IMG/VR virus record: IMGVR_UViG_2639762884_000001 | Source: a virus | Taxonomy: Duplodnaviria > Heunggongvirae > Uroviricota > Caudoviricetes | DNA length: 64,000 bases | Strand: one strand, 5' to 3' | Shown here: in pieces, positions 1,480-60,429 of the stretch | Layout of the letters: the number at the start of each line of letters is the position of its first letter | Numbering within the stretch: position 1 is the stretch's first letter | Program-made: the position numbers and the translations under genes | The notes under the pieces: generated by a model | The model's input: only the letters and a program-made list of their open reading frames with translations | The model's database searches: none | Told to the model about the DNA's origin: nothing

Positions 1480-1499
1480 ATAGGTAAGTATGTACCTAT
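1480..1499. promoter_or_regulatory. intergenic ATAGGTAAGT...ACCTAT palindromic motif (family member)
   Basis: ataggtaagtatgtacctat, about 60-70 nt upstream of the holin-like gene; same motif family recurs in at least 15 intergenic regions. Confidence 0.3.
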
Positions 1500-1561
1500 A
1501 ATTGAAAGGAGAAGTGTGATATAAATCCGCCATCCCGATTTGACTTTTCATGGAGGAAAAT

Positions 1562-1885
1562 ATGTCGAACGAGATGGCGGGCGTTACAACAGAGCAAGTT
1601 GAGCGTATTGCCGCGATCGTTGCTCGGGAGGTTGTTGGTAAATTAGGTAAAGAGCTACGTGAAGAAATTGGCCAGGAGGTCAATGATCAGCTGAAAACCT
1701 ACTTTGGTGATATGACCCCGGCGCAACATAGTATTCAACACTCCAATCTGGACAAACTCCTTAACCGGTTAGATTCCATCTCCAGTGGGTTCTTTGGCGG
1801 CATTGTTTCTAAAATAACGTCGTTCATTATTACTGCACTGCTTTTGGGGTTAGCCGCGTATGGCGTAAAAAATGGACTGCAATAA
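1562..1885 (+). CDS. holin-like small membrane protein (single C-terminal TM)
   Basis: ATG at 1562 preceded by GGAGG; hydrophobic C-terminal segment ITSFIITALLLGLAAYGV; first gene of a lysis-type cassette. Confidence 0.35.
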   Translation: MSNEMAGVTTEQVERIAAIVAREVVGKLGKELREEIGQEVNDQLKTYFGDMTPAQHSIQHSNLDKLLNRLDSISSGFFGGIVSKITSFIITALLLGLAAYGVKNGLQ

Positions 1886-1898
1886 CAGGAGATCAAGG

Positions 1899-2591
1899 AT
1901 GAAGACTCCGAGAGGCATTCGTAATAATAACCCCGGTAATCTTGATAAAGGATCACCGTGGCAAGGTCTGGTTGCGAATCCAGACGAACCGCGCTTTTGC
2001 ACGTTTAAAGACCCTGTTTGGGGGATTCGTGCGCTGGCGGTGACTCTAATTACCTACCACGACAAACGTCGCGCAAAAGACGGCTCAAGTATCGATACCA
2101 TTCGTGAAGTTATTGAACGTTGGGCACCGCCGAATGAAAACAATACTGACGCCTACATTAATGAGGTGTCTAAAGCCGTTGGTGTAACCGCAGACATGAT
2201 CATCGATCTGCATGATTACGACATCCTTCGACCTTTGGTTGAGGCAATCATTCGCCATGAGAATGGGCGAGGTCCGCTAAAAACGCTGAACACCTGGTAT
2301 GCGGCAGAAGTTATTGAGGAAGGTCTGCGTCGAGCTGGCGTCGTTAAGCCGGTGAAAACCGTGAAGGCTGTTCCTGTAACTAAAGAAACCGCAGGCGCAA
2401 CTGTCACAGCAGGTATTGGTCTGGCGCAGCTGGCCGATGTTATGCAGCAGGTTTCCGCTGCTATGGATAAAGCACAAGGTCATATCTCTAGCGGGGATAC
2501 AGTACGCATCATCTTCGGTATTGCCACTATTGTTGTGGCAGGATTCATTGCCTGGTCGCAGGTAAGAAAACACCAGAAAGGGATGGTCTAA
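1899..2591 (+). CDS. putative endolysin-like protein with C-terminal membrane anchor
   Basis: ATG 1899 with AGGAG RBS; N-terminal RNNNPGNL-containing domain; hydrophobic C-terminus IIFGIATIVVAGFIAW; sits between holin-like gene and spanins; enzymatic family not assigned. Confidence 0.35.
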   Translation: MKTPRGIRNNNPGNLDKGSPWQGLVANPDEPRFCTFKDPVWGIRALAVTLITYHDKRRAKDGSSIDTIREVIERWAPPNENNTDAYINEVSKAVGVTADMIIDLHDYDILRPLVEAIIRHENGRGPLKTLNTWYAAEVIEEGLRRAGVVKPVKTVKAVPVTKETAGATVTAGIGLAQLADVMQQVSAAMDKAQGHISSGDTVRIIFGIATIVVAGFIAWSQVRKHQKGMV

Positions 2592-2592
2592 T

Positions 2593-2844
2593 ATGCTAGG
2601 CAGCCTGATGACAAAGCTAAAAGTTGCTTTGATTACGCTGGCTGCCGTTCTTTTCGTTCTTGTCGGCGCTTACACGATGGGCGGAAATGCGGCGCGACGA
2701 GCAATGGAAGAGAAGGCAAAACAGGAAGACAGAAAACGACTTCAAAGCACAGTGGATGTCAAAAATGAAACGGTTAATGAAGTGCGGCAAAAAGATGCCT
2801 CTGGTGTTCATCGCGAGCTGTTTGATAAATGGGTGCGTGATTAA
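2593..2844 (+). CDS. i-spanin (Rz-like)
   Basis: N-terminal TM (LITLAAVLFVLVGAY) followed by charged, coiled-coil-like region; overlaps o-spanin gene. Confidence 0.55.
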   Translation: MLGSLMTKLKVALITLAAVLFVLVGAYTMGGNAARRAMEEKAKQEDRKRLQSTVDVKNETVNEVRQKDASGVHRELFDKWVRD

Positions 2845-4366: not shown

Positions 4367-4462
4367 TAACAGCCATTGATTCTCGCCTAAAAATTCTAAG
4401 GCAGCACCTACCATTTAACCTTTACACCACAGCCGTAGGCATTTAGGCTATATCACATATAA

Positions 4463-4512: not shown

Positions 4513-5181
4513 ATGACCAAGATCTTTGTGGTTGGCGGCACAAAGGGCGGGCCTGGCAAATCCACCGTTGCCCAGCAAATTGCCGTTTGCCTGAAAGTCA
4601 AAAAGAAGAAGAAGGTTTATATCACCGATATAGATATTCAGCGCACGACAACGAGCTGGTGTGAAGACCGTCGACAGAACGAAGATCTTGAGCTGATTCC
4701 TTTTGCATACGTTCAAGATGACATCATTAAGCACCTAAAATCGCTTCAGGGTAGAGCTGAGTATGTAGTGGTAGATGCTGGTGGCTTTGACTCCGAAATT
4801 CAGCGACAAGCGATGCTGATGGCCGACGTTATCATTATCCCGCTGCGTCCTAAGCGTCGTGATTTGAAATCTTTACGTGACATCGATCCTATTATCGACA
4901 ATGTTCGCAATGTAAACGACAAAGTGAAAGTCCGCGCGGTCATGAACCAATGCCCGGCTTTGCCATCACAAGTGTCTCGCATTCTAGCGGCTAAAGAGAT
5001 TGTCGAGACGTTTGGCATCGAGTCTGCGCCAGTCAATCTATATAACCGCAACGTCTATGATGATGCGGAAGAGTCTGGTCGTTCTATCTTTGAAATGACC
5101 GGTAGCGAGCGCGACAAAAAGGCGGAAGCCGAGTTTGAAGAATTTGTAGATTATCTGTTGAGTCTGGAGGAAGAAGAATAA
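4513..5181 (+). CDS. parA: ParA-family partition ATPase (small type)
   Basis: Deviant Walker A GGTKGGPGKST near N-terminus; 222 aa; followed by small partner gene. Confidence 0.8.
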   Translation: MTKIFVVGGTKGGPGKSTVAQQIAVCLKVKKKKKVYITDIDIQRTTTSWCEDRRQNEDLELIPFAYVQDDIIKHLKSLQGRAEYVVVDAGGFDSEIQRQAMLMADVIIIPLRPKRRDLKSLRDIDPIIDNVRNVNDKVKVRAVMNQCPALPSQVSRILAAKEIVETFGIESAPVNLYNRNVYDDAEESGRSIFEMTGSERDKKAEAEFEEFVDYLLSLEEEE

Positions 5182-5540
5182 TGTCCATGAAAATGGGTGA
5201 CCTAGCAAAGCGCAAAGAGCCTGATGCACCGGCTAAGAACACAACTCCTTTGCGCCAACCAATCAGACCACAGGGACGCCCGACTCGTGGCAAAGAGAAA
5301 ATTAAAAGCCGCACGATGTCACTGGAAGACGAATACTTCGAACTGCTGGAGATGATGAAGTTCATCCCTCGCTTCGAGAAGTTCACCCGTTCTGACGTGA
5401 TTCGCGCAGCCATTTTCCATCTGGCAGAGAAGTCACCGCAGGAAATCGAGGACATCGTGAAACTTAACGAGGCGATCACTGCTGCCGATGTCACGATGCG
5501 TACCGATGAAATTAAACGCGAGTTAATGAAGAAAGGTTGA
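5181..5540 (+). CDS. small partition partner protein (ParB/ParG-like centromere-binding protein)
   Basis: 119-aa basic protein translationally coupled to parA (ATG overlaps stop); position only, no motif proof. Confidence 0.45.
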   Translation: MSMKMGDLAKRKEPDAPAKNTTPLRQPIRPQGRPTRGKEKIKSRTMSLEDEYFELLEMMKFIPRFEKFTRSDVIRAAIFHLAEKSPQEIEDIVKLNEAITAADVTMRTDEIKRELMKKG

Positions 5541-6777: not shown

Positions 6778-6838
6778 AGCCTGTTTCTGTATATAAATAA
6801 TAAGTAACTTATTAAATATATACGGAAGCAGGTCTTTT
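6778..6838. repeat. AGCCTG(C/T)TTCTGTATATA...TATATACGGAAGCAGG hairpin element, copy 1
   Basis: Long imperfect inverted repeat with AT-rich loop; near-identical copy at 53874-53932. Confidence 0.5.
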
Positions 6839-6916: not shown

Positions 6917-6937
6917 ATAAGTAAGTAACTACCTACC
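6917..6937. promoter_or_regulatory. ATAAGTAAGT...ACCTAC motif (family member)
   Basis: ataagtaagtaactacctacc immediately upstream of gene 6949. Confidence 0.3.
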
Positions 6938-18429: not shown

Positions 18430-18635
18430 GTTATCTATATCGTTAGTTAATTTTGAACATAAATGATACTTAGTCCACCGCTAAATTTCATCAAATTTGA
18501 TAATTTTCTTGACGATCATGTCTCAAAATTATTTATACTTGGCATATTTGAGATATATAATAATAGGTAATAACACACCTATCACATTTAAGCATCAACA
18601 AGATAAATTACGGACCCAGACCAGAAAGGAAACTA

Positions 18636-19095: not shown

Positions 19096-20199
19096 ATGAA
19101 AAATAGCTTTGACAGAGCACGCGCTGCGGAGAACACCTCAAAAGAGGCGATAGAGTATCTCGAAAGAGCATCTCAAATGCAGGCCGTTATGATCTCCCAG
19201 GTCAGCAATGACATGAGATTCTCGGACGCATTCATGTTATTCACTCGCTTATCTCTGCTGATAACCAGACGTCGGCCAGAGATCGCTGTTCATTGTATTT
19301 TGATACATGTTTTGCCGCACATTGCCGATGTAAAAGTAAGTGACATTAATAGGTTCATGGTGAACCAACTGGTCAACCCACTAATACTGGATGGCAAAAT
19401 TGTTATGGGCCGCCGCGTTTTCTCTCTGATGAAGCAGTTCCTTAGCTGGTGCGCCTTCCAGGGGATGATAGACGTGTCACCGTTAAACGATATGTCACTT
19501 AACAAAGTTGCCGGTGGCGCAAAGCCCACACCTCGCGAGCGGAAGCTGACCGACGCAGAGGTATGGGTGTTCTGGAATATATGGGACTACTTCAATGTGT
19601 GTGCTGGTACAAAATGGGCGGCCAGGCTGTGTCTTGTATCAGCAAGACGACCTGACGAAGTACTGCGGGCTAAAAAAAGTGAGTTCAATCTTAAGCGTGG
19701 GGTTTGGAATCAAGGCAAGAGGAACAAATCTGCCCGTGAGCATTCTCTGCCTTTAAGCTCATTAATGCGCACTTGTATTGAAGAGTTGTTCGAATATGGT
19801 AAAGACAGCCAGTGGCTCGTGCCTTCGAATAAAAAAATCGGGAAAGACCTTCCTATGTCTAAAGTGGCAATAGCCCAGGCATTACGTCGTATTCTGGAAC
19901 GACCAGAACTGATGGAGCTTGAGCCATTTACACCCCGAGATTTGCGCCGTACTGCGCGTAGTTACTTCCCAGCATTAGGCATAAGCCAGGAGGTATCACG
20001 TAAAATCATGAACCACAGTCTTGAGGGGATAGATCGGGTCTACGACCGGCACGATTATATGGACGAGATGCGAGACGCCTTAGAAAGTTTCTCGACGTAC
20101 ATCGCATCAATCGTAGAGCAACCGGATTTAGACGAAATTGACCACAAATTTAAGGGAGATCGTCTATCAACAGAGCTTATTCGTGTAAATTTTTCATAG
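19096..20199 (+). CDS. int: tyrosine site-specific recombinase (phage integrase family)
   Basis: C-terminal catalytic signature ...RDLRRTARSYF...HSLEGIDRVYDRHDY; core-binding-like middle domain; N-terminal arm-binding region short or atypical. Confidence 0.75.
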   Translation: MKNSFDRARAAENTSKEAIEYLERASQMQAVMISQVSNDMRFSDAFMLFTRLSLLITRRRPEIAVHCILIHVLPHIADVKVSDINRFMVNQLVNPLILDGKIVMGRRVFSLMKQFLSWCAFQGMIDVSPLNDMSLNKVAGGAKPTPRERKLTDAEVWVFWNIWDYFNVCAGTKWAARLCLVSARRPDEVLRAKKSEFNLKRGVWNQGKRNKSAREHSLPLSSLMRTCIEELFEYGKDSQWLVPSNKKIGKDLPMSKVAIAQALRRILERPELMELEPFTPRDLRRTARSYFPALGISQEVSRKIMNHSLEGIDRVYDRHDYMDEMRDALESFSTYIASIVEQPDLDEIDHKFKGDRLSTELIRVNFS

Positions 20200-20580
20200 A
20201 GACTTTATGGCCTCAACAACCTTTTGTGATGCGCCTTTCTCTTTACCGAATCGCTCGTTATATGCAGCAAGAACCTGTTTTTCGTCCTCGTTAAGAGGAG
20301 CAGTGCCTTCTTTGTATAAAAATGCTGCGAGTTCGGGTTGGCGTTCTTCCAGCACCATCATCATAAGACGACTTGGCTCAATACCCAGTGCCAGCGCCAG
20401 CGGACGAACCTTATCGATAGGCAAAGGAATTTTGCCGCTTTTAATTAAAGAAAGGTTGTTGGCGTTTTTATACCCAATTGTTTTGGCTATCTGGGCCTGG
20501 CTCATAGGTGAGGATTCAATCAACCCTGCGATAAAAGCAGCGTAGCGACTTTCTATAAATTCAATCTTGTTATCAGACAT
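20194..20580 (-). CDS. HTH transcriptional regulator (XRE/Cro-CI-like)
   Basis: HTH segment MSQAQIAKTIGYKNANNLSLIKSG; 128 aa; convergent with recombinase; AAAGG RBS. Confidence 0.6.
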   Translation of the reverse strand: MSDNKIEFIESRYAAFIAGLIESSPMSQAQIAKTIGYKNANNLSLIKSGKIPLPIDKVRPLALALGIEPSRLMMMVLEERQPELAAFLYKEGTAPLNEDEKQVLAAYNERFGKEKGASQKVVEAIKSL

Positions 20581-20831
20581 GGTTACAACCTTTGCGCGTT
20601 CAATTCTCTCTGGTAAGTGCTTACCGATATTACATCAAAGGTTAGGGTTGTAAAGCTATTATCATTTTTTTCGATAGGCACTTAAAAGACCGGTTAAAGG
20701 CCATTGCACGGAGAAAAATTAGCCCAAAACAGGTAAGAAAATCAACTTGCATATGATATGTATGTATTCAGTATTGATACAAATTTTAGTAGTATTCCTT
20801 ACCATAGTATAAGTTAGAATGGATTGATTGA

Positions 20832-21044
20832 ATGAACACCACTATTTCCAGCCTAATCGCTCTTGAGATCGGACACGTACAGAAATTAGCTGATGAGTGT
20901 GTAGCTGACATCCTCACCGATCTACCGAATGAGCAGATTCAGGTTGGTGTGAATGACACAACTGGATTTATATTCGAACTTAACAACAAACGCTTCACGC
21001 TTCTCAATACCGGCTCCGGGTCTTTAGCCGTCAGAATCTGTTAA
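20832..21044 (+). CDS. hypothetical small protein
   Basis: 70-aa ORF divergent from the HTH regulator; weak RBS. Confidence 0.35.
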   Translation: MNTTISSLIALEIGHVQKLADECVADILTDLPNEQIQVGVNDTTGFIFELNNKRFTLLNTGSGSLAVRIC

Positions 21045-23266: not shown

Positions 23267-23289
23267 CGATAAGTAACCACTTACGATAG
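23267..23289. promoter_or_regulatory. ATAAGTAA...ACTTAC motif (family member)
   Basis: cgataagtaaccacttacgatag between the CobT-like and CobS-like genes. Confidence 0.3.
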
Positions 23290-23346
23290 ATAATGATATA
23301 TTTATATAAGAAGTTGAACGCTCATTAGAAAACAAAGGAAAAACGC

Positions 23347-30001: not shown

Positions 30002-30030
30002 TGATAGATAATAAGTAAGTACTGATCTAT
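30002..30030. promoter_or_regulatory. GATAGATAATAAGTAAGTACTGATCTATC palindromic motif (family member)
   Basis: Between UvsY-like and SSB genes. Confidence 0.3.
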
Positions 30031-33520: not shown

Positions 33521-33532
33521 TCTCTTGAAAAT

Positions 33533-33551
33533 ATATAAGTGCTTACTTATT
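33533..33551. promoter_or_regulatory. ATATAAGTGCTTACTTATT motif (family member)
   Basis: Immediately after the terminator, ~30 nt upstream of gene 33583. Confidence 0.3.
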
Positions 33552-33582
33552 ATTTTCGCATAACAACCACATAGGAAAACAC

Positions 33583-35465: not shown

Positions 35466-35504
35466 GTTTACAGTAAAATTTATATAAGTTAGTATCTACC
35501 TATC

Positions 35505-38990: not shown

Positions 38991-39009
38991 ATAGGTATAT
39001 ACTTACTTA
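38991..39009. promoter_or_regulatory. ATAGGTATATACTTACTTA motif (family member)
   Basis: ~130 nt upstream of SbcD-like gene. Confidence 0.3.
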
Positions 39010-39122
39010 TAAATTTTGTATATTAAGGCGCTCGTTTCATTCCTAACATACCGTTATGCATAGTTGTTTACCTCCTCATTGCTCTTAGAATTTGTATCAA
39101 AATAACCACAAAGGAAAAATAC

Positions 39123-43666: not shown

Positions 43667-43673
43667 TTTCATT

Positions 43674-43696
43674 GATAGGTAAGTGCTTATCTATTA
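43674..43696. promoter_or_regulatory. GATAGGTAAGTGCTTATCTATTA motif (family member)
   Basis: Just after RuvC stop, before a hairpin and nrdA. Confidence 0.3.
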
Positions 43697-43700
43697 ACAT

Positions 43701-43733
43701 GGGCCACTATATTTAGTGGCCCTCTTTATTTGG
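43701..43733 (+). terminator. rho-independent terminator-like hairpin before nrdA
   Basis: gggccact atattt agtggccc followed by tctttattt. Confidence 0.5.
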
Positions 43734-46055: not shown

Positions 46056-46060
46056 CATAT

Positions 46061-46092: not shown

Positions 46093-46115
46093 GTAAGCCT
46101 TGTTTAAACACATAA

Positions 46116-46133
46116 GATAACAACTTGTTTAAA
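46116..46133. promoter_or_regulatory. GATAACAA-N-TTGTTT palindromic motif upstream of nrdB
   Basis: gataacaacttgtttaaa, 46 nt upstream of ATG 46162. Confidence 0.45.
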
Positions 46134-46161
46134 CGCACCAAAAAAGAAAAAGGAAAAACAC

Positions 46162-47304: not shown

Positions 47305-47381
47305 ACCGATACAAAGCATTATGTGGCCTGGCAACGCTGGGCCACAATGGATCACAAGAATTAAGAAGGAACAAAACTAGC

Positions 47382-48251
47382 ATGAACTTTACCAAACTGA
47401 CTGACCACCTGAAACTTGCCACCGATCGACTCATTGGATTTAAGCCAGAACCATATGAGTTGCATGAAGGTCATGGTGTAGCTACTGAAAGTATTTACAA
47501 GATGGTCGATCAGTTTCATGAACTCTTCCAGCATCCGAGACGCGTTATGCCGACACCAGAGCTGCTTCGTCTCCGTGCAAGCCTGATTCATGAAGAAGCT
47601 GTAGTGGAAGGTATTCCAGCCGCAATGAATGGGGATATTGAGCAACTGCTGGATGCAATGGCCGACTTTTTATACGTTGGTGTTGGTACGATGGTCGCCA
47701 TCAAAGGTGGTATTTCTACCGGCATGACCTATTACACGCAGGAACAGAGCATTGATCGCTTTATGCAGACAATTTTTGTGCCCGGTAACACTGTTTTCGA
47801 TGATATGGCAATGCCATTTCAGGAAGCTCGTGAGGCGTCATGTATGCTCGAAGAGCTGGCAGATAAACTTGAGAACAAGACTGTTAAGGATTCTGAGCTG
47901 ATTCAGGAACTGCGCCGTGTCATGAACAAAATCTATGTGGCGTGCATGATGACCTATCGACTGGCTGATTTCCTCGGTATCAATGTAGTCGAGCTGGTTG
48001 GCGAAATTCATCGGTCTAACATGACAAAATTATGGCCTGCTGATGTCGAGGAACGTCGCCAGGCTGTGGCCAACTGCAAATACGACTCTTCAGACCTGGG
48101 ATTTCGCCATGCTGATGGTACCGATAAGATGATCGGTTTTCGAATTTCCGATGGAAAGATTCTGAAGTCTCCAACCTATAGTGATGTCGATTTATCCTCC
48201 TTTGTTGAGCAAGCTAAAGCCTCAGCAATGTACGGAATGATCAAAAAATAA
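47382..48251 (+). CDS. hypothetical protein, possibly all-alpha NTP pyrophosphohydrolase (MazG-like)
   Basis: Helical protein in the nucleotide-metabolism block; weak similarity of EExxE/D-containing helices to MazG-type enzymes. Confidence 0.3.
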   Translation: MNFTKLTDHLKLATDRLIGFKPEPYELHEGHGVATESIYKMVDQFHELFQHPRRVMPTPELLRLRASLIHEEAVVEGIPAAMNGDIEQLLDAMADFLYVGVGTMVAIKGGISTGMTYYTQEQSIDRFMQTIFVPGNTVFDDMAMPFQEAREASCMLEELADKLENKTVKDSELIQELRRVMNKIYVACMMTYRLADFLGINVVELVGEIHRSNMTKLWPADVEERRQAVANCKYDSSDLGFRHADGTDKMIGFRISDGKILKSPTYSDVDLSSFVEQAKASAMYGMIKK

Positions 48252-48253
48252 TT

Positions 48254-48270
48254 GTAGGTAGTTATCTATC
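48254..48270. promoter_or_regulatory. GTAGGTAGTTATCTATC motif (family member)
   Basis: Immediately after stop of gene 47382..48251. Confidence 0.3.
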
Positions 48271-48319
48271 TATGTATATTGTGTTAGCGCGTTAAATTCC
48301 TGAAACAACTATTCGTTTT

Positions 48320-48346
48320 GGTGGCCTATGGCCACCATTTTTTTAT
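48320..48346 (+). terminator. rho-independent terminator
   Basis: ggtggcc tat ggccacc followed by atttttttat. Confidence 0.7.
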
Positions 48347-48421
48347 CTATCTGGCCTTGTTCCCTCAATAAATGTAAACTCACGTAATGAATAAGTGGTT
48401 ACTTATCTTTGTGAGGTTTTT

Positions 48422-49525
48422 GTGTCACTCCTTTTGAATCGTGAGCATACGAACGGTCAGGTAACAAACGCATCGTATGCAAAAGTTATTGAGACGGTGC
48501 TTAAAAGCGGCGTGCAGGCTGATGATCGCACAGGCACTGGTACTTTAAGCACCTGCTACGTTCCCTCTTACTACATGCTTACTGGTGGGACTGTGCCGCT
48601 TATTTCTGGAAAGGCGGTAAATCTTAAGCCACTGCTTGTCGAACTTGAGTGGTATCTGAAAGGCACGGGCAACATCCAATTTCTCAAGGATAACGGCGTT
48701 AAGATTTGGGATGCATGGGCCGATGAGAATGGCGATTTGGGGCCAGTTTACGGTAAGCAGTGGCGTCGATGGGAAGATACCCGCATCGTGAGCCATAGTG
48801 AATATCTGAGCAAGATCGCTACTTTCCGTGAACGCGGGTACAAAGTCGAGGGATACCTAGGTATCAGTGAAGATCGCGTAGTGCTGTCCCGTGAAATCGA
48901 TCAGCTACAGCGTATTGTCGATACACTGCGCACGAACCCTACCGATCGTCGCATCATGCTTAACGCATGGAACGTAGGCGAGCTTGAGGATATGAAACTG
49001 CCACCTTGCCACTTTGTCTTCTCTTTGTGGAGTCGTGAGCTTGATTTTGAAACCCGTTTAACGATGGCAACTGACATTGGTCTTCAACACAGTCGCCTCG
49101 GTTACGAGTCTATCTACACCAAGATGCTATACGATCTGGAGATGGACGGCAGTGTTACTGAAGCTGAACTGGATGAACTTGGAATCCCCAAACGCATCCT
49201 CAACTCCTGCCTCGTACAGCGTAGCGTAGACACTTTTGTTGGTATGCCATTCAATATTGCTGGCTATGGCATTCTCACTCATTTTCTCGCGAAGATTACG
49301 GGTCACATGGCCGGTGCATTTGTGCATTTTGGCTTTGACGTGCATTTGTACAATAACCACATGGAAAGTGTGCGTGAGCTAATGCAACGACAGGCTCCAG
49401 AGCATTCAGATCCGGTCGTTATATTCCCTAATGAATGGTCTGAGCTGGATGATTTCAAATGGGACGAGATTCTTATTCTTGGCTATGCCCCTCTACCGTG
49501 GATCAAGGTTCCAGTGGCGGTGTGA
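48422..49525 (+). CDS. thyA: thymidylate synthase (ThyA family) with internal insertion
   Basis: DRTGTGTLS, WDAWADENGDLGPVYGKQWR, active-site LPPCHF, PFNIAGY, HLYNNH; ~60-aa insertion after PPCHF versus E. coli ThyA; start moved to GTG 48422 with GAGG RBS. Confidence 0.8.
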   Translation: MSLLLNREHTNGQVTNASYAKVIETVLKSGVQADDRTGTGTLSTCYVPSYYMLTGGTVPLISGKAVNLKPLLVELEWYLKGTGNIQFLKDNGVKIWDAWADENGDLGPVYGKQWRRWEDTRIVSHSEYLSKIATFRERGYKVEGYLGISEDRVVLSREIDQLQRIVDTLRTNPTDRRIMLNAWNVGELEDMKLPPCHFVFSLWSRELDFETRLTMATDIGLQHSRLGYESIYTKMLYDLEMDGSVTEAELDELGIPKRILNSCLVQRSVDTFVGMPFNIAGYGILTHFLAKITGHMAGAFVHFGFDVHLYNNHMESVRELMQRQAPEHSDPVVIFPNEWSELDDFKWDEILILGYAPLPWIKVPVAV

Positions 49526-49526
49526 T

Positions 49527-49940
49527 ATGGCAAGAGGTATGTATGTCTTATGCGAAATTGAAGGTGTGCTGGCAAATACCAGCCATCGTAAATCTGTATC
49601 TGACTCGGATGCAGGCCAATTCATTGCCGGTGATGAACTCATTTTCCCCACCAGCCGTATGTTGCGTGGTTTTGCTCGCTCAGGGGCTGAAGTGGTGCTT
49701 ATCAGTAGCCGCTCTGAAACTCTTGAAGCGCCCACTAAACGATGGCTGAAAGATTTTGGTGTTGATTACGACTGGCTTCATCTCGTACCGAATAGCACTA
49801 GTTATGAGAAGCATATTAAGCGCACATTAGCGGAGCATAAAGGCGATCTGCTTATCGCTGCGCTGGTGCACGATCCTCGACTCCGTGCCGCTTTAGCTGA
49901 CTCTCATCATAGACCGGTCATCTATGAGGTGAGCAAATGA
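49527..49940 (+). CDS. hypothetical protein (possibly HAD-like hydrolase)
   Basis: ATG overlaps thyA stop; N-terminus MARGMYVLCEIEGVL loosely resembles HAD motif I. Confidence 0.3.
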   Translation: MARGMYVLCEIEGVLANTSHRKSVSDSDAGQFIAGDELIFPTSRMLRGFARSGAEVVLISSRSETLEAPTKRWLKDFGVDYDWLHLVPNSTSYEKHIKRTLAEHKGDLLIAALVHDPRLRAALADSHHRPVIYEVSK

Positions 49941-50413
49941 AGATGATAGCTGCTGTTGGCCGTAACTATGAGATCGGCATAGCGAACGAACTGCCCTGGC
50001 GTTGTTCTACCGATCTGAAGCTATTTAAGAGACTCACCAAAAACGCCACTGTCGTTATGGGGCGTAAAACGATGGAAAGTCTCAAACGCCCTCTTCCAGA
50101 GCGTCATAACCTCGTTTTGACGCGCTCTCATGGCTTTGTACCAAATGGATTCTACCCTGCTGGTGTGGATGATGTGTTGCGATTACCAGAGCCTGTGTGG
50201 GTGATTGGCGGGAAACAAATTTACTCGCTATTCATGCCGCATGTTGAAGAGATTTGGCTCTCCCACATCGACGTTGATGTGCCAAACGCCGATGCATTCT
50301 TCCCGGCAAGCATGATGCGTAATTTAGGCTTTGTGCCTGTTGAAACAGCTTATACCCAACGAGCCAGCGAGGAAGAGCCTGGCTTTTCGCAGATCGTATA
50401 CAGAAGGTCGTAA
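49937..50413 (+). CDS. dihydrofolate reductase
   Basis: 158 aa; N-terminal MIAAVGRNYEIG...LPW and VVMGRKT segments typical of DHFR; adjacent to thyA. Confidence 0.75.
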   Translation: MKMIAAVGRNYEIGIANELPWRCSTDLKLFKRLTKNATVVMGRKTMESLKRPLPERHNLVLTRSHGFVPNGFYPAGVDDVLRLPEPVWVIGGKQIYSLFMPHVEEIWLSHIDVDVPNADAFFPASMMRNLGFVPVETAYTQRASEEEPGFSQIVYRRS

Positions 50414-53075: not shown

Positions 53076-53227
53076 CGTTCCCCTACTGAAAATAAAGCCC
53101 ATAGAGAGCTTTATAGTGCTGGGTAAGCCAATCACATACCCAGCACCACAAAAACGCGCCAGAGAGCTTCTCGTTTGCATTTCTGGCGCGTTTTATTTGA
53201 TTGCCATACATAAAATCAAATGCAAAA

Positions 53228-53247
53228 ATAGGTAATCACTTACCTAT
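53228..53247. promoter_or_regulatory. ATAGGTAATCACTTACCTAT palindrome (family member)
   Basis: Perfect AGGTAA/TTACCT inverted repeat just upstream of the Dam-like gene. Confidence 0.35.
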
Positions 53248-53873: not shown

Positions 53874-53932
53874 AGCCTGCTTCTGTATATATAAATAACT
53901 ACATATTAATTATTAATATACGGAAGCAGGCT
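53874..53932. repeat. AGCCTGCTTCTGTATATAT...ATATACGGAAGCAGGCT hairpin element, copy 2 (likely terminator)
   Basis: Near-identical to 6778-6838 element; followed by gttttg. Confidence 0.5.
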
Positions 53933-54038: not shown

Positions 54039-54269
54039 ATGTCATACCCGACTAATGTCGTTGCGCTCGTAGAGAGCGATTTTCTGGCCCAGGCTCGTGA
54101 AATGATGAAAGATCGTGAGCAGGCCTTCAACTTGTACGAATGGGCAATTAAGTGCTTGCATCTTGGCGAGCATCGCGAACTTGTTGAACAGCTTTTAGGT
54201 GAGTTGATCAATGAGGTGTTTGCCTTGAATGTTCAACTACATGGTAGAGAAAATAATCAATCACAATGA
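54039..54269 (+). CDS. hypothetical protein
   Basis: ATG 54039 with AAGGA RBS. Confidence 0.45.
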   Translation: MSYPTNVVALVESDFLAQAREMMKDREQAFNLYEWAIKCLHLGEHRELVEQLLGELINEVFALNVQLHGRENNQSQ

Positions 54270-54850
54270 TAGATAAGTACAAACTATTCATAAAGTGAAT
54301 TGTAAGTGCTAAGATCTGATAGTTTCCAGTCGTAGACTGGAGGCTCGATCTGATGGGTGGGGGTAAGCGTCACTGGCGTCAGGTTTAAAAAAGCTCACTA
54401 CCAGCGTAGAACCGGTGCCGTTTAGGTGTCGGGGAAGGGGGAACCAAAGTGAGCAGAGACAAGGGTCACTTTATGATTGTCGAGTCTGGGGTGTTTCGAG
54501 AGGTTGAATCCAGTACTCCCCTTCATAAAGTGTGGGAAGATCTCGGTTCTGGGGTGCTGTCATCCATAACTTCCCAAGTCTAAGCTGGCAGTAGACTTAG
54601 ACCATAGCTTTTCAGGTTATGAAACGACCAGGTTGGTGAGGAATTTTATACTCACCTCCCTGGGAGAGTATTACCTGAAAAGACAACCTCTCACTTCGTT
54701 CGAGGTGAACTTCACTCACTTCGTTCGTTCAGTTCAGGTTTATAAAAACCTGTTCTGGGAAGTAATTTGTTTATTTTAATAATTATTAACACGCACGCGT
54801 GTGCGCACGCGCGAGGAAAAAATCGGCGCGGCGCTTGATTCAGGAGTTTA
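54270..54850. other. ~580-bp non-coding, GC-richer structured region (candidate ncRNA or cis element)
   Basis: No plausible ORF on either strand; hairpins (ccagtc gta gactgg), direct repeats (tcacttcgttcg x2, tctggggtg x2) and GC palindrome cacgcgtg near 54790-54812. Confidence 0.35.
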
Positions 54851-54851: not shown

Positions 54852-55445
54852 ATGACGACGAAGACACCAGCCCGATCGCAAGCAAAAACTCGCAAAAAAG
54901 ACAAAAACAAAAATTCTCCCCGCACCAATCCCACAACGCCTGTCGTAGAGTTCAACCCCCAGCTTAAAACCGTGAAAATCTTTAGTGATGGCTCTTGCCT
55001 CAAAAATCCGGGTGGCCCGGGCGGTTACGGTATCGTTCTCCAGTATCGTGGTGAGGAACGCGAGTTCTCAGATGGTTTTCATAGCACCACCAATAACCGC
55101 ATGGAGATGATGGGGGCACTTATCGGGCTGGAGCGTTTGAAATATCCATGCAACGTTATTTTGTACTCTGATAGCCAGTATCTGAAAAACGGCATGACAC
55201 AGTGGATGAAATGGTGGAAACGTAATGGATGGATGACTTCTGATAAAAAACCGGTAAAGAATGTTGATCTGTGGAAACGTCTGGATGAGGCCGCAAGTCG
55301 ACATAATGTTCGCTGGAAGTGGGTTAAAGGTCACGCCGGGCATCGTGAAAATGAAATATGTGATCGACTCGCGAAGATCGCAGCTTTTTCCGCAGCCGAT
55401 ACGCCTCACAAGAAAGACATTGGTTTTATTTACAACAAGTGGTAA
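54852..55445 (+). CDS. rnhA: ribonuclease HI with N-terminal basic extension
   Basis: Core closely matches bacterial RNase HI ([51 protein letters not shown]); ~38-aa Lys/Arg/Thr-rich N-terminal extension; ATG 54852 with AGGAG RBS. Confidence 0.85.
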
Positions 55446-55462
55446 GTAAGTGTTTACCTATC
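55442..55462. promoter_or_regulatory. GTAAGTAAGTGTTTACCTATC motif (family member)
   Basis: Overlaps the RNase H stop codon. Confidence 0.3.
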
Positions 55463-55590
55463 ATATTAAATCATGTATCTTATCGGCGTCAGGATGACAA
55501 TGTGTCGGTAAGACACAGTTCCAGGATGGAACGAGAAAGGCGGCTGGCGATCGCCAGCCGCAACTCTTTCTGACACTGGATGGAGTCCAC

Positions 55591-58005: not shown

Positions 58006-58007
58006 TT

Positions 58008-58622
58008 ATGTTCGGGATGTCAATTACTCAATCAGATGGAAGTTTGTGGATGAGTCCAGAATTTACTCCGCAAAATCTGATTAATAAAGGGACAATGTCT
58101 ACATCTAAAGGTTCTGTTTTTCAAACATCAATCCCATCAAACAAATCATGTTTTTTTTTCATAAAAAGCAGTAATAAGGCGAACATGATGTTTATTCATG
58201 AGCATAGTAACGGATACAATGCTCTCAGATTGCATCAGGTAAATGGTAGCCCCGGAACAATAACAGTTTATGCTTTTTCTGATATGGTGTTACCACATTC
58301 TGGCTATGGCATTGCCATGTATAACAGCGCAGGCGCAATGGTGTATCACGGTGAGATGATGCCCCTTGATGCGAAACTTATCACTATTTCTGACCCTCAA
58401 TTTACAATAGATATGGGGTATCCATGTGCGGTAATGCCTGCTATGGTTGGAGTATATAACTATAGACGAACCGATTACGACAGACCTGTCTATGTAACAA
58501 TGACAGGTGCAACTGGAAACCAAGTATATAACGGTCAATGGTATTCCGGTAATGTCACATGGGATATTAAGAAGATTTATACAAACAAAATTCTGGTGAT
58601 AAATACCTCCAAGTATGATTAG
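58008..58622 (+). CDS. hypothetical protein (AT-rich accessory gene 2 of 2)
   Basis: ATG 58008 three nt after upstream stop; Asn/Tyr/Met-rich, predicted beta-rich. Confidence 0.45.
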   Translation: MFGMSITQSDGSLWMSPEFTPQNLINKGTMSTSKGSVFQTSIPSNKSCFFFIKSSNKANMMFIHEHSNGYNALRLHQVNGSPGTITVYAFSDMVLPHSGYGIAMYNSAGAMVYHGEMMPLDAKLITISDPQFTIDMGYPCAVMPAMVGVYNYRRTDYDRPVYVTMTGATGNQVYNGQWYSGNVTWDIKKIYTNKILVINTSKYD

Positions 58623-58685
58623 CCAATGCCTTTATTTGAAGGATTGCCTGTTTATTTCTATTTAGTACCTTTTCATTTTTGAAAT

Positions 58686-58725
58686 AATTGCACCATTAAA
58701 CAAATCACTTCTTAATGGTGCAATT
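58686..58725. promoter_or_regulatory. perfect 14-bp inverted repeat abutting the methyltransferase start codon
   Basis: aattgcaccattaa - 12 nt - ttaatggtgcaatt, ending at the ATG. Confidence 0.5.
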
Positions 58726-60411
58726 ATGAATACAGCCCTTTCCATCATCGACGATGCCAACTCAAACACTGCTATCGACTATCGGCAGGAAATGAACGTC
58801 ATCCACGAAATTGTGGCCGAGTGCGAGAAAGAGATCGCCTTCATGTATCAGGTTCACGACTTCGTTTATGGCGACGAACGCCACAACATGATTAATCGCC
58901 TGCTGAGACTAAACCATCGACCAGATGAAGATCGCTCGCGTTTAAATCGAGGTTGGTTGGATAAAGTCGATCTGGAATGGGTGAAACAGAATATTTGGGC
59001 CGAGTACTGGAGGAAGGTCACGGACATGACTAACGTTTTGCTGATCATGCCAGCTTCCCGTCGAGATGAGTGGCGCGAGCAGTTTATAGAGGGCAAACAG
59101 GAAGTCATCAAAACTGACAGAACCGGCTACCAGATGAAGGTTAAAGAGTTCGTTGGTGTACCGGAGTTCAAAGCAGAAACGGTCATACCCACGATGCTTA
59201 ATTTGCTGAATGACAGGCACAAATATCTCTCTGAGCGCGTGTATGGCTTGTTTAAGGCGCTGAGTCCTGCGCACAAGACAAATAAGACAAACGGTTTCAG
59301 CGAGCGTCTGATAATCGCTGACTGCATTTCTGATTTCTGGCGGGACAGCGTTAGCGTGAACTATCGCAAAGAGGACTACATCGACGATCTGCGTGTCTTG
59401 CTTCATTTCTTCGCGCACAAAGAATTTATTACCATCAACCGCACTGCTGAGGTGCTATCAGCTGCGTATCGGGCAAACGACTGCCAGACCGGTGACTGGA
59501 TGAACGTCGATGGAAATCTGATGCGCGTGAAGATGTTCAAGAACGGCAACGTTCACTTTGAAATACATCCTGACGTGGCCTGGAAGTTGAATGAGGTGCT
59601 GGCTTACAGTATGCCTGCTGCAATTCCCGCGCCATGCCGAACTGCGCCAAAAACACGGGCACCAAAGCAGTTCGGGTTAATCCAGAAGACGATCTCCGTG
59701 CCGGTTCGCACTGCGCTTCGTGACGGGCGATTTAGCAAAGACAAAGGCGTATGGTACTTCTCTGATTCAGCTCTCCAGAAGTCGCAGGTGGAAGAGCTTG
59801 AGCGCACACTGAGCTTCATTGGCGGCGTGCAGGAGAAAAAGCACTGGCAGTTCCCGTATGAGATCGGCCATACGCTAAATACGATTGTGGCTACCGGTTT
59901 AATACCGGATACAAAATCACACCAGTTCTACCCTACCCCACGCTTGATTGCTGAGTACGTTGCCAGAGCCACTGAATTGAAGCCTGGTGAGAAGTTGTTG
60001 GAGCCTCAAGCCGGACGTGGGGATCTTCTGGCCTATATTAACGCCGATCTGGAAGATGTTACCTGCATAGAAATCGCACCTCTCTTCGCTGATATCCTGC
60101 GTGGAAAAGGGTATACGAACACGATTTGCTGCGACTTCATAAAGTGGTCTGAGGACAACGCAGGTTATCAGTTCGACAAAATCGTTATGAACCCGCCGTA
60201 CTCGCTTGGTCGTCATAGAGAGCACACGCTGGCTGCGCTGGGGCATCTGAAAGTCGGCGGGCGTCTTGTAGCAGTATTGCCGGGCACTGCGCCAATACTG
60301 GACTGGATGACGATGGATAATTACGTTTATGCCAGAGGGAAGTCGTTTACCAACGAGTTTGAAGACACAGGGATCACAGTCAGCGTATACGTTTTCAAAC
60401 GCGTTAAATGA
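58726..60411 (+). CDS. DNA N6-adenine methyltransferase (gamma-class) fused to a large N-terminal domain of unknown function
   Basis: C-terminal ~180 aa: FYPTP, SAM motif LEPQAGRGDLL, catalytic MNPPYS; N-terminal ~380 aa without recognised motif; no adjacent restriction enzyme gene. Confidence 0.65.
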   Translation: MNTALSIIDDANSNTAIDYRQEMNVIHEIVAECEKEIAFMYQVHDFVYGDERHNMINRLLRLNHRPDEDRSRLNRGWLDKVDLEWVKQNIWAEYWRKVTDMTNVLLIMPASRRDEWREQFIEGKQEVIKTDRTGYQMKVKEFVGVPEFKAETVIPTMLNLLNDRHKYLSERVYGLFKALSPAHKTNKTNGFSERLIIADCISDFWRDSVSVNYRKEDYIDDLRVLLHFFAHKEFITINRTAEVLSAAYRANDCQTGDWMNVDGNLMRVKMFKNGNVHFEIHPDVAWKLNEVLAYSMPAAIPAPCRTAPKTRAPKQFGLIQKTISVPVRTALRDGRFSKDKGVWYFSDSALQKSQVEELERTLSFIGGVQEKKHWQFPYEIGHTLNTIVATGLIPDTKSHQFYPTPRLIAEYVARATELKPGEKLLEPQAGRGDLLAYINADLEDVTCIEIAPLFADILRGKGYTNTICCDFIKWSEDNAGYQFDKIVMNPPYSLGRHREHTLAALGHLKVGGRLVAVLPGTAPILDWMTMDNYVYARGKSFTNEFEDTGITVSVYVFKRVK

Positions 60412-60429
60412 TAGGTAAATACTTACTTA
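60411..60429. promoter_or_regulatory. ATAGGTAAATACTTACTTA motif (family member)
   Basis: Overlaps the methyltransferase stop codon. Confidence 0.3.

Follow-up and report, generated by a model that had tools for sequence, protein, structure and literature searches.

In phage P1, a plasmid prophage like the element analyzed here, one repressor (C1) acts through many operators spread over about 100 kb, at lytic-gene promoters, including that of dam, as well as at the repressor gene, and Op sites are annotated in the P1 record at pmgT, lpa and c1; these operators are asymmetric 17-mers, and the late genes are controlled indirectly via Lpa, whose box, with AAGT/ACTT half-sites in a palindromic core, lies at -22 in fixed geometry to the -10 of many activator-dependent late promoters. 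In mycobacteriophage L5 and in Bxb1, a single repressor silences the whole prophage, and some 24-34 copies of a short site, the stoperator, lie in small intergenic gaps of the early and late regions; these 13-mers are monomer-bound and elongation-blocking, and those of L5 are reportedly asymmetric and orientation-dependent. The XRE-type cI-Cro systems of lambda, 434 and P22 combine a small helix-turn-helix repressor and a divergent small gene with palindromic operators, one of them on the repressor's own promoter, whose half-sites lie about one helical turn apart; the operators form OL and OR clusters and a cascade follows. The LexA SOS box is a 20-bp palindrome (CTGT-N8-ACAG) whose outer blocks are conserved and whose centre is AT-rich, placed variably within some tens of promoters, with a weaker autoregulatory copy.

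The window, a stretch of 64,000 nucleotides, belongs to an SSU5/pHCM2-type (SSU5-like) phage-plasmid of roughly 108 kb, with 97% identity to phages Cyrano and PhiR41_1, and carries about 19 copies (25-30 per genome) of a palindrome that stands on most lytic-gene promoters of the element and is probably the operator of the lysogeny repressor of the phage-plasmid, the most likely binder being the protein encoded at 20194-20580. If this is true, one small prophage repressor silences the virus while it lives as a plasmid, via dispersed operators. The arrangement would recall that of P1, with one candidate repressor and many operators at lytic-gene promoters and its own gene; nevertheless, the sites here are symmetric, the same site stands in the virion and lysis clusters, and C1, an unrelated protein of 283 aa, gave no tblastn match. 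The many copies of one short site in intergenic gaps also resemble the L5/Bxb1 arrangement, although here they lie mostly on promoters. The predicted fold of the candidate, its divergent small gene, the spacing of the half-sites and the operator on its own promoter match the lambdoid systems, but single operators at about 25-30 separate promoters take the place of clusters and cascade, and since the candidate lacks an S24 autocleavage domain, induction must work another way. The likeness to LexA extends to the layout of the box (here AGGT-N8-ACCT), its variable placement and the weaker autoregulatory copy, whereas sequence and protein differ; moreover, of 5426 complete E. coli genomes, 197 contain near-consensus copies, at 640 places in all, every one on plasmids and none on a chromosome, which argues against a host regulon. 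No published description of the motif was found in the literature.

With at most three mismatches, the 20-mer made of ATARGTAAGT and ACTTACYTAT (ATARGTAAGTACTTACYTAT) matches 11 window sites, all 11 intergenic, against 0.005 expected from 200 dinucleotide shuffles, and with at most four mismatches 14 against 0.06. When the shuffle is limited to AT-rich intergenic DNA (39% GC), the counts are 11 against 0.0 and 13 against 0.025; an AT-rich background, raised in the preliminary description as a possible source of the motif, thus does not explain its frequency. Roughly symmetric AT-rich flanks (aATG...CATt) lengthen the 20-bp element to about 28 bp, more than first described, and a 28-column matrix, scored in bits, gives 15 sites at 20 bits or more (0 expected) and 20 sites at 13 bits or more (0.35 expected); conservation peaks in the outer arms rather than in the centre. 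The element is present at all 15 coordinates first listed, 12 of them strong, whereas those at 13056, 23267 and 54268 are weak (8-16 bits) and occupy positions where relatives have better copies; four registers shift slightly (15700 to 15701, 30002 to 30011, 33533 to 33531, 48391 to 48387), and the copies at 12185, 18563 and 35484 and a degenerate one at 20609 had been missed. In the copy at 53228, earlier called a perfect palindrome, the 8+8 arms (ATAGGTAA/TTACCTAT) are perfect, but the central TCAC is not palindromic. The earlier remark that many copies lie at or just past stop codons is borne out by their positions, and follows from the packing of promoters directly behind the preceding gene. 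The motif is retained at orthologous positions in Cyrano, SSU5, about 80 IMG/VR relatives, Klebsiella plasmids and Yersinia pMT1, virion and lysis clusters included, while the flanks diverge; the genes downstream serve DNA replication, recombination and nucleotide metabolism in the window, and in Cyrano and SSU5 also encode portal, tail, tail-fibre and holin proteins. The copies outside the candidate repressor locus are as follows, with the promoters that they overlap.

1480..1499: operator copy ATAGGTAAGTATGTACCTAT, ahead of the holin gene (1550), 30.6 bits; its last 3 nt begin a TATAAT; orthologues at Cyrano 26657 and SSU5 27474.
6917..6936: operator copy 12 nt ahead of ATG 6949 (CYRAN_31 homologue), 23.0 bits, inside a 57-bp divergent intergenic region; kept at Cyrano 31296 and SSU5 33600.
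12185..12204: new operator copy, 25.4 bits, followed by the extended -10 TGTAAGAAT (hexamer 12213-12218), which is conserved at SSU5 38178 and Cyrano 34730.
13056..13075: weak operator copy before the gene at 13090, 10.9 bits, 5 mismatches (4 in its counterpart at Cyrano 35607).
15701..15720: operator copy upstream of the tRNA cluster, 31.0 bits, promoter score 8.9; the right arm gives a -35-like TTTACT, with TAAGAT 17 nt on (15731); TATAAGAT at this site is conserved in SSU5 41773.
18563..18582: new operator copy before the glutaredoxin gene (18636-18884, Pfam Glutaredoxin), 20.6 bits, promoter score 10.9; TATAAT immediately upstream at 18556.
23269..23305: two overlapping weak copies (23269, 8.0 bits; 23286, 16.9 bits) before the gene at 23347; the counterpart at SSU5 45120 retains ATAAGTAATCACTTAC.
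30011..30030: operator copy, 25.9 bits, in the spacer of TAGATA-N17-TATCAT (detected by our own scan and an independent tool), before the gp32-like SSB gene (30115).
33525..33553, plus strand: near-consensus promoter TTGAAA-N17-TATTAT, score 13.1, the best promoter-like site in 30000-49999 (10/12), with operator 33531-33550 in its spacer and the beginning of its -10; the -35 is conserved at Cyrano 57446 and SSU5 55695 though flanks differ.
35484..35503: new operator copy ending 1 nt before ATG 35505, 23.1 bits, with an identical counterpart at SSU5 58074; two promoter-like sequences, TTTACA-N17-TAGTAT and TTTATA-N16-TATCAT, overlap it.
38991..39010: operator copy before the SbcD-like gene (39123), 31.7 bits; its counterpart at SSU5 63080 has TGTCATAAT 7 nt downstream.
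43672..43722, plus strand: promoter TTGATA-N17-TAACAT, score 11.8 and found by the independent tool, with operator 43675-43694 in the spacer and a hairpin (43701-43722) directly after, ahead of the RNR alpha gene; layout identical at SSU5 67775.
48254..48273: operator copy immediately behind the MazG-like gene and ahead of a terminator, 20.9 bits; promoter TTGTAG-N17-TATATT, score 9.9.
48387..48406: operator copy 15 nt ahead of the thyX start, 19.2 bits, supported by orthologue alignment; conserved -10 TAAACT immediately upstream.
53201..53247, plus strand: dam promoter TTGCCA-N17-AAAAAT, score 11.2, with operator 53228-53247 on the -10/+1 and ATG at 53259; relatives with protein identities as low as about 70% keep the -35, the spacing and the operator, while the spacer sequence is variable.
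54269..54288: weaker operator copy, 16.3 bits; the copy at SSU5 78709 has 3 mismatches.
55442..55461: operator copy, 27.0 bits, supported by orthologue alignment, promoter score 8.6; the right arm gives TTTACC as -35 for TATCTT (55476), and a conserved structured leader follows.
60411..60443, plus strand: operator 60411-60430, 29.4 bits, then the extended -10 TGTAAGAAT (TG 60435-36, hexamer 60438-60443); both are co-conserved at fixed spacing even with a different downstream gene.

Sigma-70-like promoters in gene direction are enriched on the sites relative to flank shuffles (z=6.2 in Cyrano and 6.5 in SSU5, against 1.3 and 1.6 in the opposite orientation), a promoter score of at least 9 is reached at 9 of 23 sites against 2 expected from flank-shuffled controls, and an independent scanner places five of its eight plus-strand hits in 30000-49999 on motif sites, the best one included. 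Measured from the -10, the register of the palindrome varies between -21 and +35: the spacer holds the operator at 33531, 30011, 43675 and Cyrano 3527, whereas at 18563, at the repressor gene and at dam (53228, where TTGCNA-N17-AAAAAT is conserved) it covers the -10/+1, and at 60411 and 12185 it lies over the -35, next to a conserved extended -10. Since these registers differ, the palindrome behaves as an operator and not as a fixed promoter element. Of the suggestion that the copies were promoters of one temporal class, the location on promoters holds, but the palindrome is no fixed element of them, and the genes served range from replication to virion and lysis functions; the option of regulator-binding sites gains support from this variable overlap and from the independence of the two arms (see below). 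These sequence data show that the sites are real, conserved pairs of half-sites on double-stranded DNA, linked to promoters in variable register.

Alternatively, the palindrome could be the recognition element of activator-dependent promoters, in the style of the '-22 box' of P1 Lpa or the MotA box of T4, which appears quite unlikely, and a phage-encoded factor that switches this promoter class on after induction is no more probable. Many copies precede lytic genes, late ones included, the late-gene sites Cyrano 2020, 5443 and 26657 overlap only poor promoter-like sequence (scores of about 5), 60411 and 12185 have no -35 but only the extended -10 at a fixed distance, and the centre, AAGTACTT, looks like the late-promoter box of P1, AAGTTACTT (LPhot). 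Nevertheless, the register varies, some of the overlapped promoters are close to consensus and require no activator, and several sites fill the 17-bp spacer of such promoters or overlie the start site, positions at which bound protein is expected to obstruct RNA polymerase; in addition, the box of P1 measures 9 bp and has an odd spacing, whereas conservation here is highest in the outer arms, and no Lpa homologue was found (best tblastn E=0.29). It is even less likely that the sites are mainly elongation roadblocks or insulators between co-directional genes, comparable to the L5 stoperators: the number of copies (about 25-30), their short intergenic gaps in early and late arrays, often just past stops, and some sites, such as Cyrano 2020 (terL/portal), that separate adjoining or overlapping genes and show little likeness to a promoter would fit, and the same repressor could serve this mode, but two-fold symmetry and the gene-direction promoter-like sequence at most sites are not expected of it.

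Symmetric positions of the arms vary independently. Among 148 dereplicated sites, the combinations at positions 4/17 (A-T 40, G-T 33, A-C 31, G-C 30) exactly match independence, and the compensatory A-T combination is avoided at 5/16, as are double hits at symmetric positions, which points to a protein on double-stranded DNA and not to a hairpin. The earlier option of RNA processing sites, or more broadly of an RNA hairpin for mRNA processing, stability or translational control, is therefore hardly credible, despite the palindromic arms, the location just upstream of the Shine-Dalgarno at dam, thyX, 6949 and portal, and an FljA-like RNA-binding repressor (PF03614) encoded by the phage-plasmid: A-C is as common at 4/17 as A-T and G-C, transcripts from the local promoter would not include the many copies that precede the predicted start site, and the element has no Rfam match.

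As an operator, then, the palindrome would mediate repression rather than activation. Some 25-30 sigma-70-type promoters scattered over the genome, serving replication, recombination, nucleotide-metabolism, methylase, virion and lysis genes, would each be overlapped by one two-fold symmetric site, on which a dimeric helix-turn-helix protein would occlude the -35, spacer, -10 or start site, keeping lytic genes off during replication as a plasmid. The poor promoter-like sequence at several late-gene sites counts against the operator reading, and joint derepression of holin and replication genes at the same time would also be unusual. The predicted binder, assigned with less certainty, and its surroundings comprise four features.

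20194..20580, minus strand: candidate repressor, CYRAN_45 homologue, 128 aa, XRE/lambda-cI-type helix-turn-helix.
20609..20628: degenerate copy TCTGGTAAGTGCTTACCGAT on the -10/+1 of the repressor gene's own promoter, 6.8 bits, whose inner 14 bp are a perfect palindrome.
20627..20654, minus strand: predicted repressor-gene promoter, -35 TTTACA (20654-20649), 16-nt spacer, -10 TAATAT (20632-20627).
20832..21044, plus strand: small divergent ORF, 70 aa, PHROG 2627 (unknown function), a Cro-like partner by position alone.

The candidate matches PHROG 8 'transcriptional regulator' (1.3e-11) and Pfam HTH_19 at E=7.8e-4, below the gathering cut-off, and its AF2 model matches the lambda cI NTD, C.AhdI, Stl and HigA with weak E-values (0.04-0.4). 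CYRAN_45 is expressed 10x above background in the Cyrano lysogen (PMC9928086), and the motif-linked genes are absent from those expressed there (PMC9928086 Table 1), yet the tRNA region and CYRAN_81, both downstream of sites, are transcribed in the lysogen. Homologues occur on about 865 PLSDB plasmids, always adjoining an integrase, and by genus they track the SSU5-type backbone, with counts that mirror those of its dam gene (Klebsiella 348/342, Escherichia 230/209, Enterobacter 92/91, Salmonella 49/49). In favour of the candidate, too, the gene is missing in the phage isolate SSU5, where the operators are kept. The repressor promoter emerges from a phylogenetic footprint over E. coli, Klebsiella, Enterobacter-type and Yersinia pMT1 homologues, and the site at 20609, through which the protein may damp its own promoter, is conserved as ATC[GA]GTAAG[CT]ACTTACCA in homologues of 56-70% identity while flanks diverge, being degenerate at the outer TA positions that are the most conserved elsewhere. 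The divergent small-ORF arrangement is conserved in pMT1 and an Acinetobacter relative, and the divergent cro-like promoter has isolated half-sites only. A Klebsiella homologue of only 48% identity retains NANN[IL]SLIKSG and the same motif, whereas in an Acinetobacter homologue, also of 48% identity, the recognition helix is RPNVLSMIKSG and the syntenic plasmid carries the dispersed palindrome AT[AC]AGTCAGTACTGACTGAT instead (8 sites against 0.01 expected), with three variants in its own repressor/cro region. Motif specificity thus appears to track the recognition helix of the XRE protein, a covariation confounded with host, as a host factor would give the same pattern.

A different binder at the same operators, namely the Cro-like ORF at 20832-21044, CYRAN_123, CYRAN_117 or a host transcription factor, seems unlikely. 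The operator sequence evidence names no particular protein, CYRAN_117 is expressed in the lysogen (PMC9928086) and 58% conserved in SSU5, and the motif switch between Enterobacterales and Acinetobacter is compatible with a host factor. In addition, no homologue of the 20194-20580 gene was found in SSU5, which retains all operator sites. SSU5 is presumably a lytic isolate, as its record has it. Against another binder stand the lack of near-consensus sites on the E. coli chromosomes, the absence of a supported DNA-binding domain hit for CYRAN_117, CYRAN_123 and CYRAN_113 and of a motif copy at their own genes, and the distribution, autoregulatory site and helix/motif correlation that favour the XRE protein. 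CYRAN_123 (winged-helix) and CYRAN_117 (ribbon-helix-helix-like) are conserved phage-plasmid candidates encoded outside the window.

By megablast, the window is 96–98% identical to Escherichia phages PhiR41_1, Cyrano and CMS-2020a, which identifies it as part of an SSU5-like phage-plasmid; Salmonella phage SSU5 itself is ~80% identical and Klebsiella phage-plasmids ~78%. Nearly all window genes lie on the + strand; in Cyrano coordinates, the window opens with the tail-fibre gene's end and the lysis genes and continues through the partition, replication, recombination and nucleotide-metabolism genes. Phage-plasmids of the SSU5/pHCM2/pSLy3/pKpn/pMT1 type are common, and the group includes the Yersinia pestis virulence plasmid pMT1, Salmonella Typhi pHCM2 and plasmids with resistance genes. 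In the literature searched, no description of lysogeny control in SSU5-type phage-plasmids was found, the reviews name no regulator, and the motif sequence appears in no paper. The dispersed 20-bp palindrome analyzed here is probably the operator of the lysogeny repressor of these elements.

The palindrome is present at all 15 positions listed in the preliminary description, and further copies lie at 12185, 18563 and 35484, together with a degenerate one at 20609. The consensus ATARGTAAGTACTTACYTAT matches 11 window sites with at most 3 mismatches, compared with 0.005 in dinucleotide shuffles, and 14 with at most 4 mismatches, compared with 0.06; a 28-column matrix finds 15 sites at ≥20 bits (0 expected) and 20 at ≥13 bits (0.35 expected). 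An AT-rich background, which had been named as what could undo the motif, is insufficient as an explanation, since shuffles restricted to intergenic DNA (39% GC) give 0 sites against the 11 observed. These consensus and matrix scans replaced a high-order Markov k-mer enrichment, in which the signal was absorbed and nothing was seen. With its flanks, which are AT-rich and roughly symmetric (aATG...CATt), the element extends over ~28 bp; conservation is highest at T2A3, G5T6A7, T10A11 in the centre, T14A15C16 and T18A19, and the matrix is symmetric, with equal conservation in both arms. The element may bear some resemblance to NarL heptamers (TACYYMT) and to the operator of P22 Arc.

Cyrano contains 29 matrix matches; the set in SSU5 is similar, and the intergenic positions are orthologous. 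Their spread exceeds the DNA-metabolism genes: copies occur where terL meets portal, within the 3′ end of portal itself, behind the major capsid gene, among the tail genes, and upstream of the tail-fibre and holin genes. No copy lies in the 20 kb of Cyrano from 85 to 105 kb, which hold small unknown genes, a MetRS gene and an FljA-like gene. Across the dam region of 80 IMG/VR relatives the motif is kept down to ~62–70% Dam identity, the arms ATAGGTA...TACCTAT upstream of dam remaining constant while the centre and flanks drift; at one locus, L084 (dam 64%), neither the motif nor an alternative recurrent palindrome was seen. A scan of genome contigs with ATAGGTAANNNNTTACCTAT yielded only single matches dispersed over unrelated taxa, a rate close to chance for 16 fixed bases in 596 Gb.

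The symmetry could reflect either a DNA site or an RNA stem, and the preliminary description had offered RNA processing as one reading. In 148 dereplicated sites, each symmetric position pair was compared with the expectation from independent columns, and at every arm position the frequency of Watson-Crick or G-U pairs equals that expectation. Positions 4/17 are A-T in 40 sites, G-T in 33, A-C in 31 and G-C in 30, and positions 5/16 are G-C in 92, A-C in 29, G-T in 24 and A-T in 1; these counts are the signature of two protein-contacted half-sites, where a deviation in one is tolerated but not in both, and not of a stem. Compensatory changes are thus absent and the RNA processing site is not sustained, the missing covariation excluding the whole family of hairpin or RNase-processing explanations; Rfam models found only three tRNAs above threshold in the window. 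As judged from this variation, the motif is a two-fold symmetric double-stranded DNA site made of two independently varying half-sites. Because it is not an RNA structure, the FljA-like protein CYRAN_114 (PF03614, two Sm-like repeats) was dropped as an RNA-level regulator of the motif.

Promoters were scored for a sigma-70-type −35, a 15–19-nt spacer, a −10 and a TG bonus, against controls in which the core was kept and the flanks were shuffled. In the gene direction the scores at motif sites exceed these controls (z=6.2 in Cyrano, z=6.5 in SSU5), with a score of at least 9 at 9 of 23 sites compared with ~2 expected, and in the reverse orientation they equal background (z=1.3 and 1.6). An independent consensus scanner found promoter-like sites depleted overall between 30000 and 49999 (17 versus 30 in shuffles), and motif sites there hold five of the eight + strand matches, including the best one, TTGAAA-N17-TATTAT at 33525–33553. 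The start of the −10-like hexamer varies from −21 to +35 relative to the motif, with no fixed distance, and the registers fall into several arrangements.

Registers of the motif relative to predicted promoters
33531, 30011 and 35484: motif in the spacer, giving the TAT of the −10
43675: motif in the spacer, shifted by 3 bp, TTGATA-N17-TAACAT
Cyrano 3527 and SSU5 3544: motif in the spacer within the portal coding sequence, near-consensus TTGAAA-ATAAGTCAGTACTTACT-TATGAT (N17), identical in both
dam: motif on −10/+1, TTGCNA-N17-(A/T)AAAAT kept in diverged relatives, with variable spacer sequence
18563, thyX and Cyrano parB: motif on −10/+1
60411 and 12185: motif over the −35 region, followed at a fixed distance by the extended −10 TGTAAGAAT
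15701 and 55442: right arm of the motif, TTTAC[TC], as the −35-like hexamer

The distance from motif to ATG at dam is constant (11–12 nt) across relatives, and TGTAAGAAT is retained at 60411 and 12185 even when the downstream gene differs. Since the RNA polymerase footprint is always overlapped, in whatever register, the motif has the look of an operator and not of an activator box or a specialized promoter element. Of the roles first suggested for the repeats, regulator-binding sites agree best with this pattern, as independent half-sites on double-stranded DNA combine with promoter overlap in variable register; promoters of one class were a partly apt description, because the sites do overlap gene-direction promoters, but the register is too variable for a specialized promoter element. 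An activator-type element is quite improbable, given that the motif-to-promoter geometry varies and that several of the linked promoters are near consensus and, from their sequences, should fire unaided. The AAGT/ACTT core had suggested a P1 late promoter served by Lpa; however, the geometry is variable, the centre is less conserved than the arms, no fixed box-to-−10 distance of about −22 without a −35, as in the P1 Lpa type, was seen, and the window, Cyrano and SSU5 hold no Lpa homologue (best tblastn E 0.29).

Several late-gene sites overlap only poor promoters, and these may be roadblocks or need an extra factor. Action mainly as a roadblock, which would be compatible with the operator model, is nevertheless very unlikely as a general account: tens of copies in short intergenic gaps across early and late arrays (29 in Cyrano) recall the L5-type stoperators, but the asymmetry and orientation dependence of the latter are lacking, the site being palindromic with equally conserved arms, and this symmetry excludes membership of the stoperator family.

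Some smaller features accompany these promoters. Upstream of dam, a conserved mini-ORF of three codons (53213–53231) ends in the operator's TAG; its sequence is ATG-CAA-AAA-TAG in the window and, in relatives, ATG-AAA-AAA-TAG or ATG-AAA-CAA-TAG. It may merely reflect the −10 AAAAAT or be a start-stop element. The translation-initiation context (A/G)GAAAA(A)CAC-ATG is common to many genes (33570–33585, 60460–60475, 23335–23349, and locus L345), and in a Klebsiella relative GAAAACACATG is repeated in 6 intergenic regions.

The distribution of the motif speaks against a regulon of a host transcription factor. Among 5426 complete E. coli genomes, 197 have motif-bearing plasmids, with a total of 640 near-perfect matches, which alone were detectable, to a 30-mer consensus; every match lies on a plasmid of ~105–120 kb, and none on a chromosome. 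The best candidate for the binder is the CYRAN_45 homologue encoded on the minus strand, whose locus comprises the following genes.

Genes of the candidate repressor locus
20194–20580(−): candidate repressor, XRE/cI-type helix-turn-helix protein, 128 aa
20832–21044(+): small divergent cro-like ORF, 70 aa, PHROG 2627

The candidate matches the 'transcriptional regulator' PHROG 8 (1.3e-11) and, weakly, Pfam HTH_19 (E=7.8e-4, below the gathering score). Its single-sequence AlphaFold2 model (pLDDT 75) matches C.AhdI, the lambda cI N-terminal domain, 434, ClgR and HigA, all with probabilities of 0.9–1.0, as well as Stl, so that by its predicted fold it would belong to the cI/Cro/XRE kind. In a Klebsiella plasmid of another replicon type, a homologue 48% identical keeps the recognition helix NANNISLIKSG, and the plasmid keeps window-type sites, ATAAGTAA...TTACTTAT. 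In an Acinetobacter baumannii phage-plasmid syntenic with the SSU5-type family, an equally distant homologue (48%) has the helix RPNVLSMIKSG, and the dispersed palindrome is a different one, AT[AC]AGTCAGTACTGACTGAT (motif AGTCAGTACTGACT), with 8 sites at ≤4 mismatches in 33.7 kb against 0.01 expected; 7 of the 8 are intergenic, upstream of orthologous genes, and three variants lie in the plasmid's own repressor/cro intergenic region. The left half-site of the portal-internal operator (Cyrano 3527) is of this Acinetobacter type, AGTCAGT. Operator specificity thus appears to track the recognition helix, and this link is indirect support for operator binding and repression by the candidate. Because the two motifs also differ in host, the comparison does not by itself exclude a host factor; binding by a different protein is unlikely, though credible, and searches of the other small ORFs in Pfam, NCBIfam and PHROG gave no further DNA-binding candidate. 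A ParB/KorB-like global regulator was discarded because CYRAN_119 and CYRAN_120 are ParB-nuclease-domain proteins without an evident helix-turn-helix, and a ParG-like ribbon-helix-helix protein (5181–5540) because the region upstream of parA contains no motif copy.

The predicted promoter of the candidate repressor, TTTACA-N16-TAATAT, is overlapped at −10/+1 by ATCGGTAAGCACTTACCAGA, which is the 20609 copy as read on the minus strand; this copy is a perfect palindrome over its inner 14 bp and lacks the outer TA steps that elsewhere are most conserved. Promoter and weak copy are kept in homologues 66–70% (IMG/VR), 56% (Klebsiella) and 65% (Yersinia pMT1) identical, while the flanks diverge; a weaker operator on the repressor's own promoter, as predicted here, is the classic autoregulatory design. 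The divergent cro-like promoter has no full operator, only isolated GGTAAG/CTTACC half-sites, and Pfam and PHROG searches gave no known fold or function for its ORF.

The candidate was first discounted for its absence from SSU5, an argument reversed by its distribution in plasmids. By tblastn, homologues occur in ~865 PLSDB plasmids, always beside an integrase, and the counts per genus resemble those of the SSU5-type dam gene (repressor/dam: Klebsiella 348/342, Escherichia 230/209, Enterobacter 92/91, Salmonella 49/49, Citrobacter 25/25; homologues also occur in 63 Yersinia pMT1 records), which indicates that the gene is near-universal in plasmid-resident forms. In SSU5 (NC_018843.1, 42596–42761, compared with window 18400–21100), the glutaredoxin-integrase-repressor-small-ORF module is missing between the tRNA gene and cobT, and all operators are retained despite the loss of repressor and adjacent integrase. 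SSU5 was isolated as a phage and serves as a lytic agent; it has the look of a plasmid prophage that naturally lost its repressor and became virulent, and the repressor model would explain its lytic behaviour. The same model predicts immunity groups, of which the Enterobacterales and Acinetobacter motifs would be two; with an operator defined and a candidate named, the switch would become open to direct tests, and annotation would gain ~25 mapped promoters.

As for the direction of regulation, the published transcriptome of the Cyrano lysogen (PMC9928086, Table 1) shows expression >5-fold over prophage background for the putative repressor CYRAN_45, for genes of toxin-antitoxin and partition systems and for a small number of morons, and for none of the motif-linked genes. 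That promoters competent in themselves stay silent in the lysogen, and have a single symmetric site in common, points to repression, on the principle of P1 C1, LexA or L5 gp71. The functional likeness lies, for P1 C1, in a plasmid prophage with dispersed operators; for LexA, in a 20-bp palindrome at variable promoter positions with a weak autoregulatory box; and for the L5/Bxb1 repressor, in tens of sites across early and late arrays. A more far-reaching and rather doubtful proposal is a flat, single-tier silencing, in which the one 128-aa repressor would sit at essentially every lytic promoter. The virion- and lysis-cluster promoters of the 108-kb phage-plasmid would then also be occupied directly, and the customary cascade from early to late genes would be lacking; copies between genes of one direction would serve additionally as symmetric roadblocks of a 'stoperator'-like kind, terminators embedded in promoters, such as the hairpin at 43701–43722, would help to insulate, and the lytic genes would be shielded from the interspersed, constitutively expressed plasmid and moron genes. 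One-step derepression of holin with replication genes would be unusual.

At the RNR promoter, a terminator-like hairpin, GGGCCACTatatttAGTGGCCC+TCTTTATTT (43695–43722), directly follows the −10 TAACAT. The predicted start (~43707) lies within its 5′ arm, part of which is upstream of the start, so that the promoter's own transcripts would lack the stem and read through, and read-through from upstream would be terminated; from its sequence the hairpin looks like an insulation device. After the 55442 operator comes a leader of ~130 nt (55462–55590) that is strongly conserved in relatives with as little as 60% protein identity. Two motifs in it resemble CsrA sites, cgtcAGGATGAc and ccAGGATGGAac, and GGCGGCTGGC...GCCAGCCGC form a GC hairpin; its match to Rfam CsrB is weak and sub-threshold (16.8 bits, E=0.04), and either control of the leader by CsrA or a small RNA is conceivable. 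Three clustered tRNA genes at 16466–16709, annotated in Cyrano as Asn, Thr and Ser, follow the 15701 operator at a distance of ~750 nt. The interval holds no convincing ORF, and transcription of the region is seen in the Cyrano lysogen (CYRAN_40 signal).

A second repeat family, unrelated to the operator, consists of ~55-bp inverted repeats, CCTGCTTCTGTATAT...ATATACGGAAGCAGG, around an AT-rich loop of ~25 nt, which scores falsely positive with the operator matrix. Each genome has three copies, all at module boundaries: one follows the partition/moron region, another follows dam, and the third precedes terminase. Bidirectional termination or binding of a protein is a conceivable role.

Copies of the second repeat family
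Window: 6779–6835 and 53877–53932
Cyrano: 31175, 78099 and 108357
SSU5: 33473 and 78319

In the partition region, a small Walker-type ParA (4513–5181) is preceded by three T[AT]AGGC-like repeats (~4398–4448) and followed by a 119-aa protein (5181–5540) with the look of a ribbon-helix-helix, ParG-type centromere binder; by sequence, the Cyrano label 'RelE/ParE toxin' for CYRAN_29 is probably a misannotation. CYRAN_114 (Cyrano 100780–101301; SSU5_121), labelled 'transcriptional repressor', is homologous to FljA over its full length (PF03614, E=1e-80). As FljA is the post-transcriptional repressor of phase-1 flagellin, CYRAN_114 is more likely a moron, and an interesting one if the phage-plasmid does switch off host flagellin through it.
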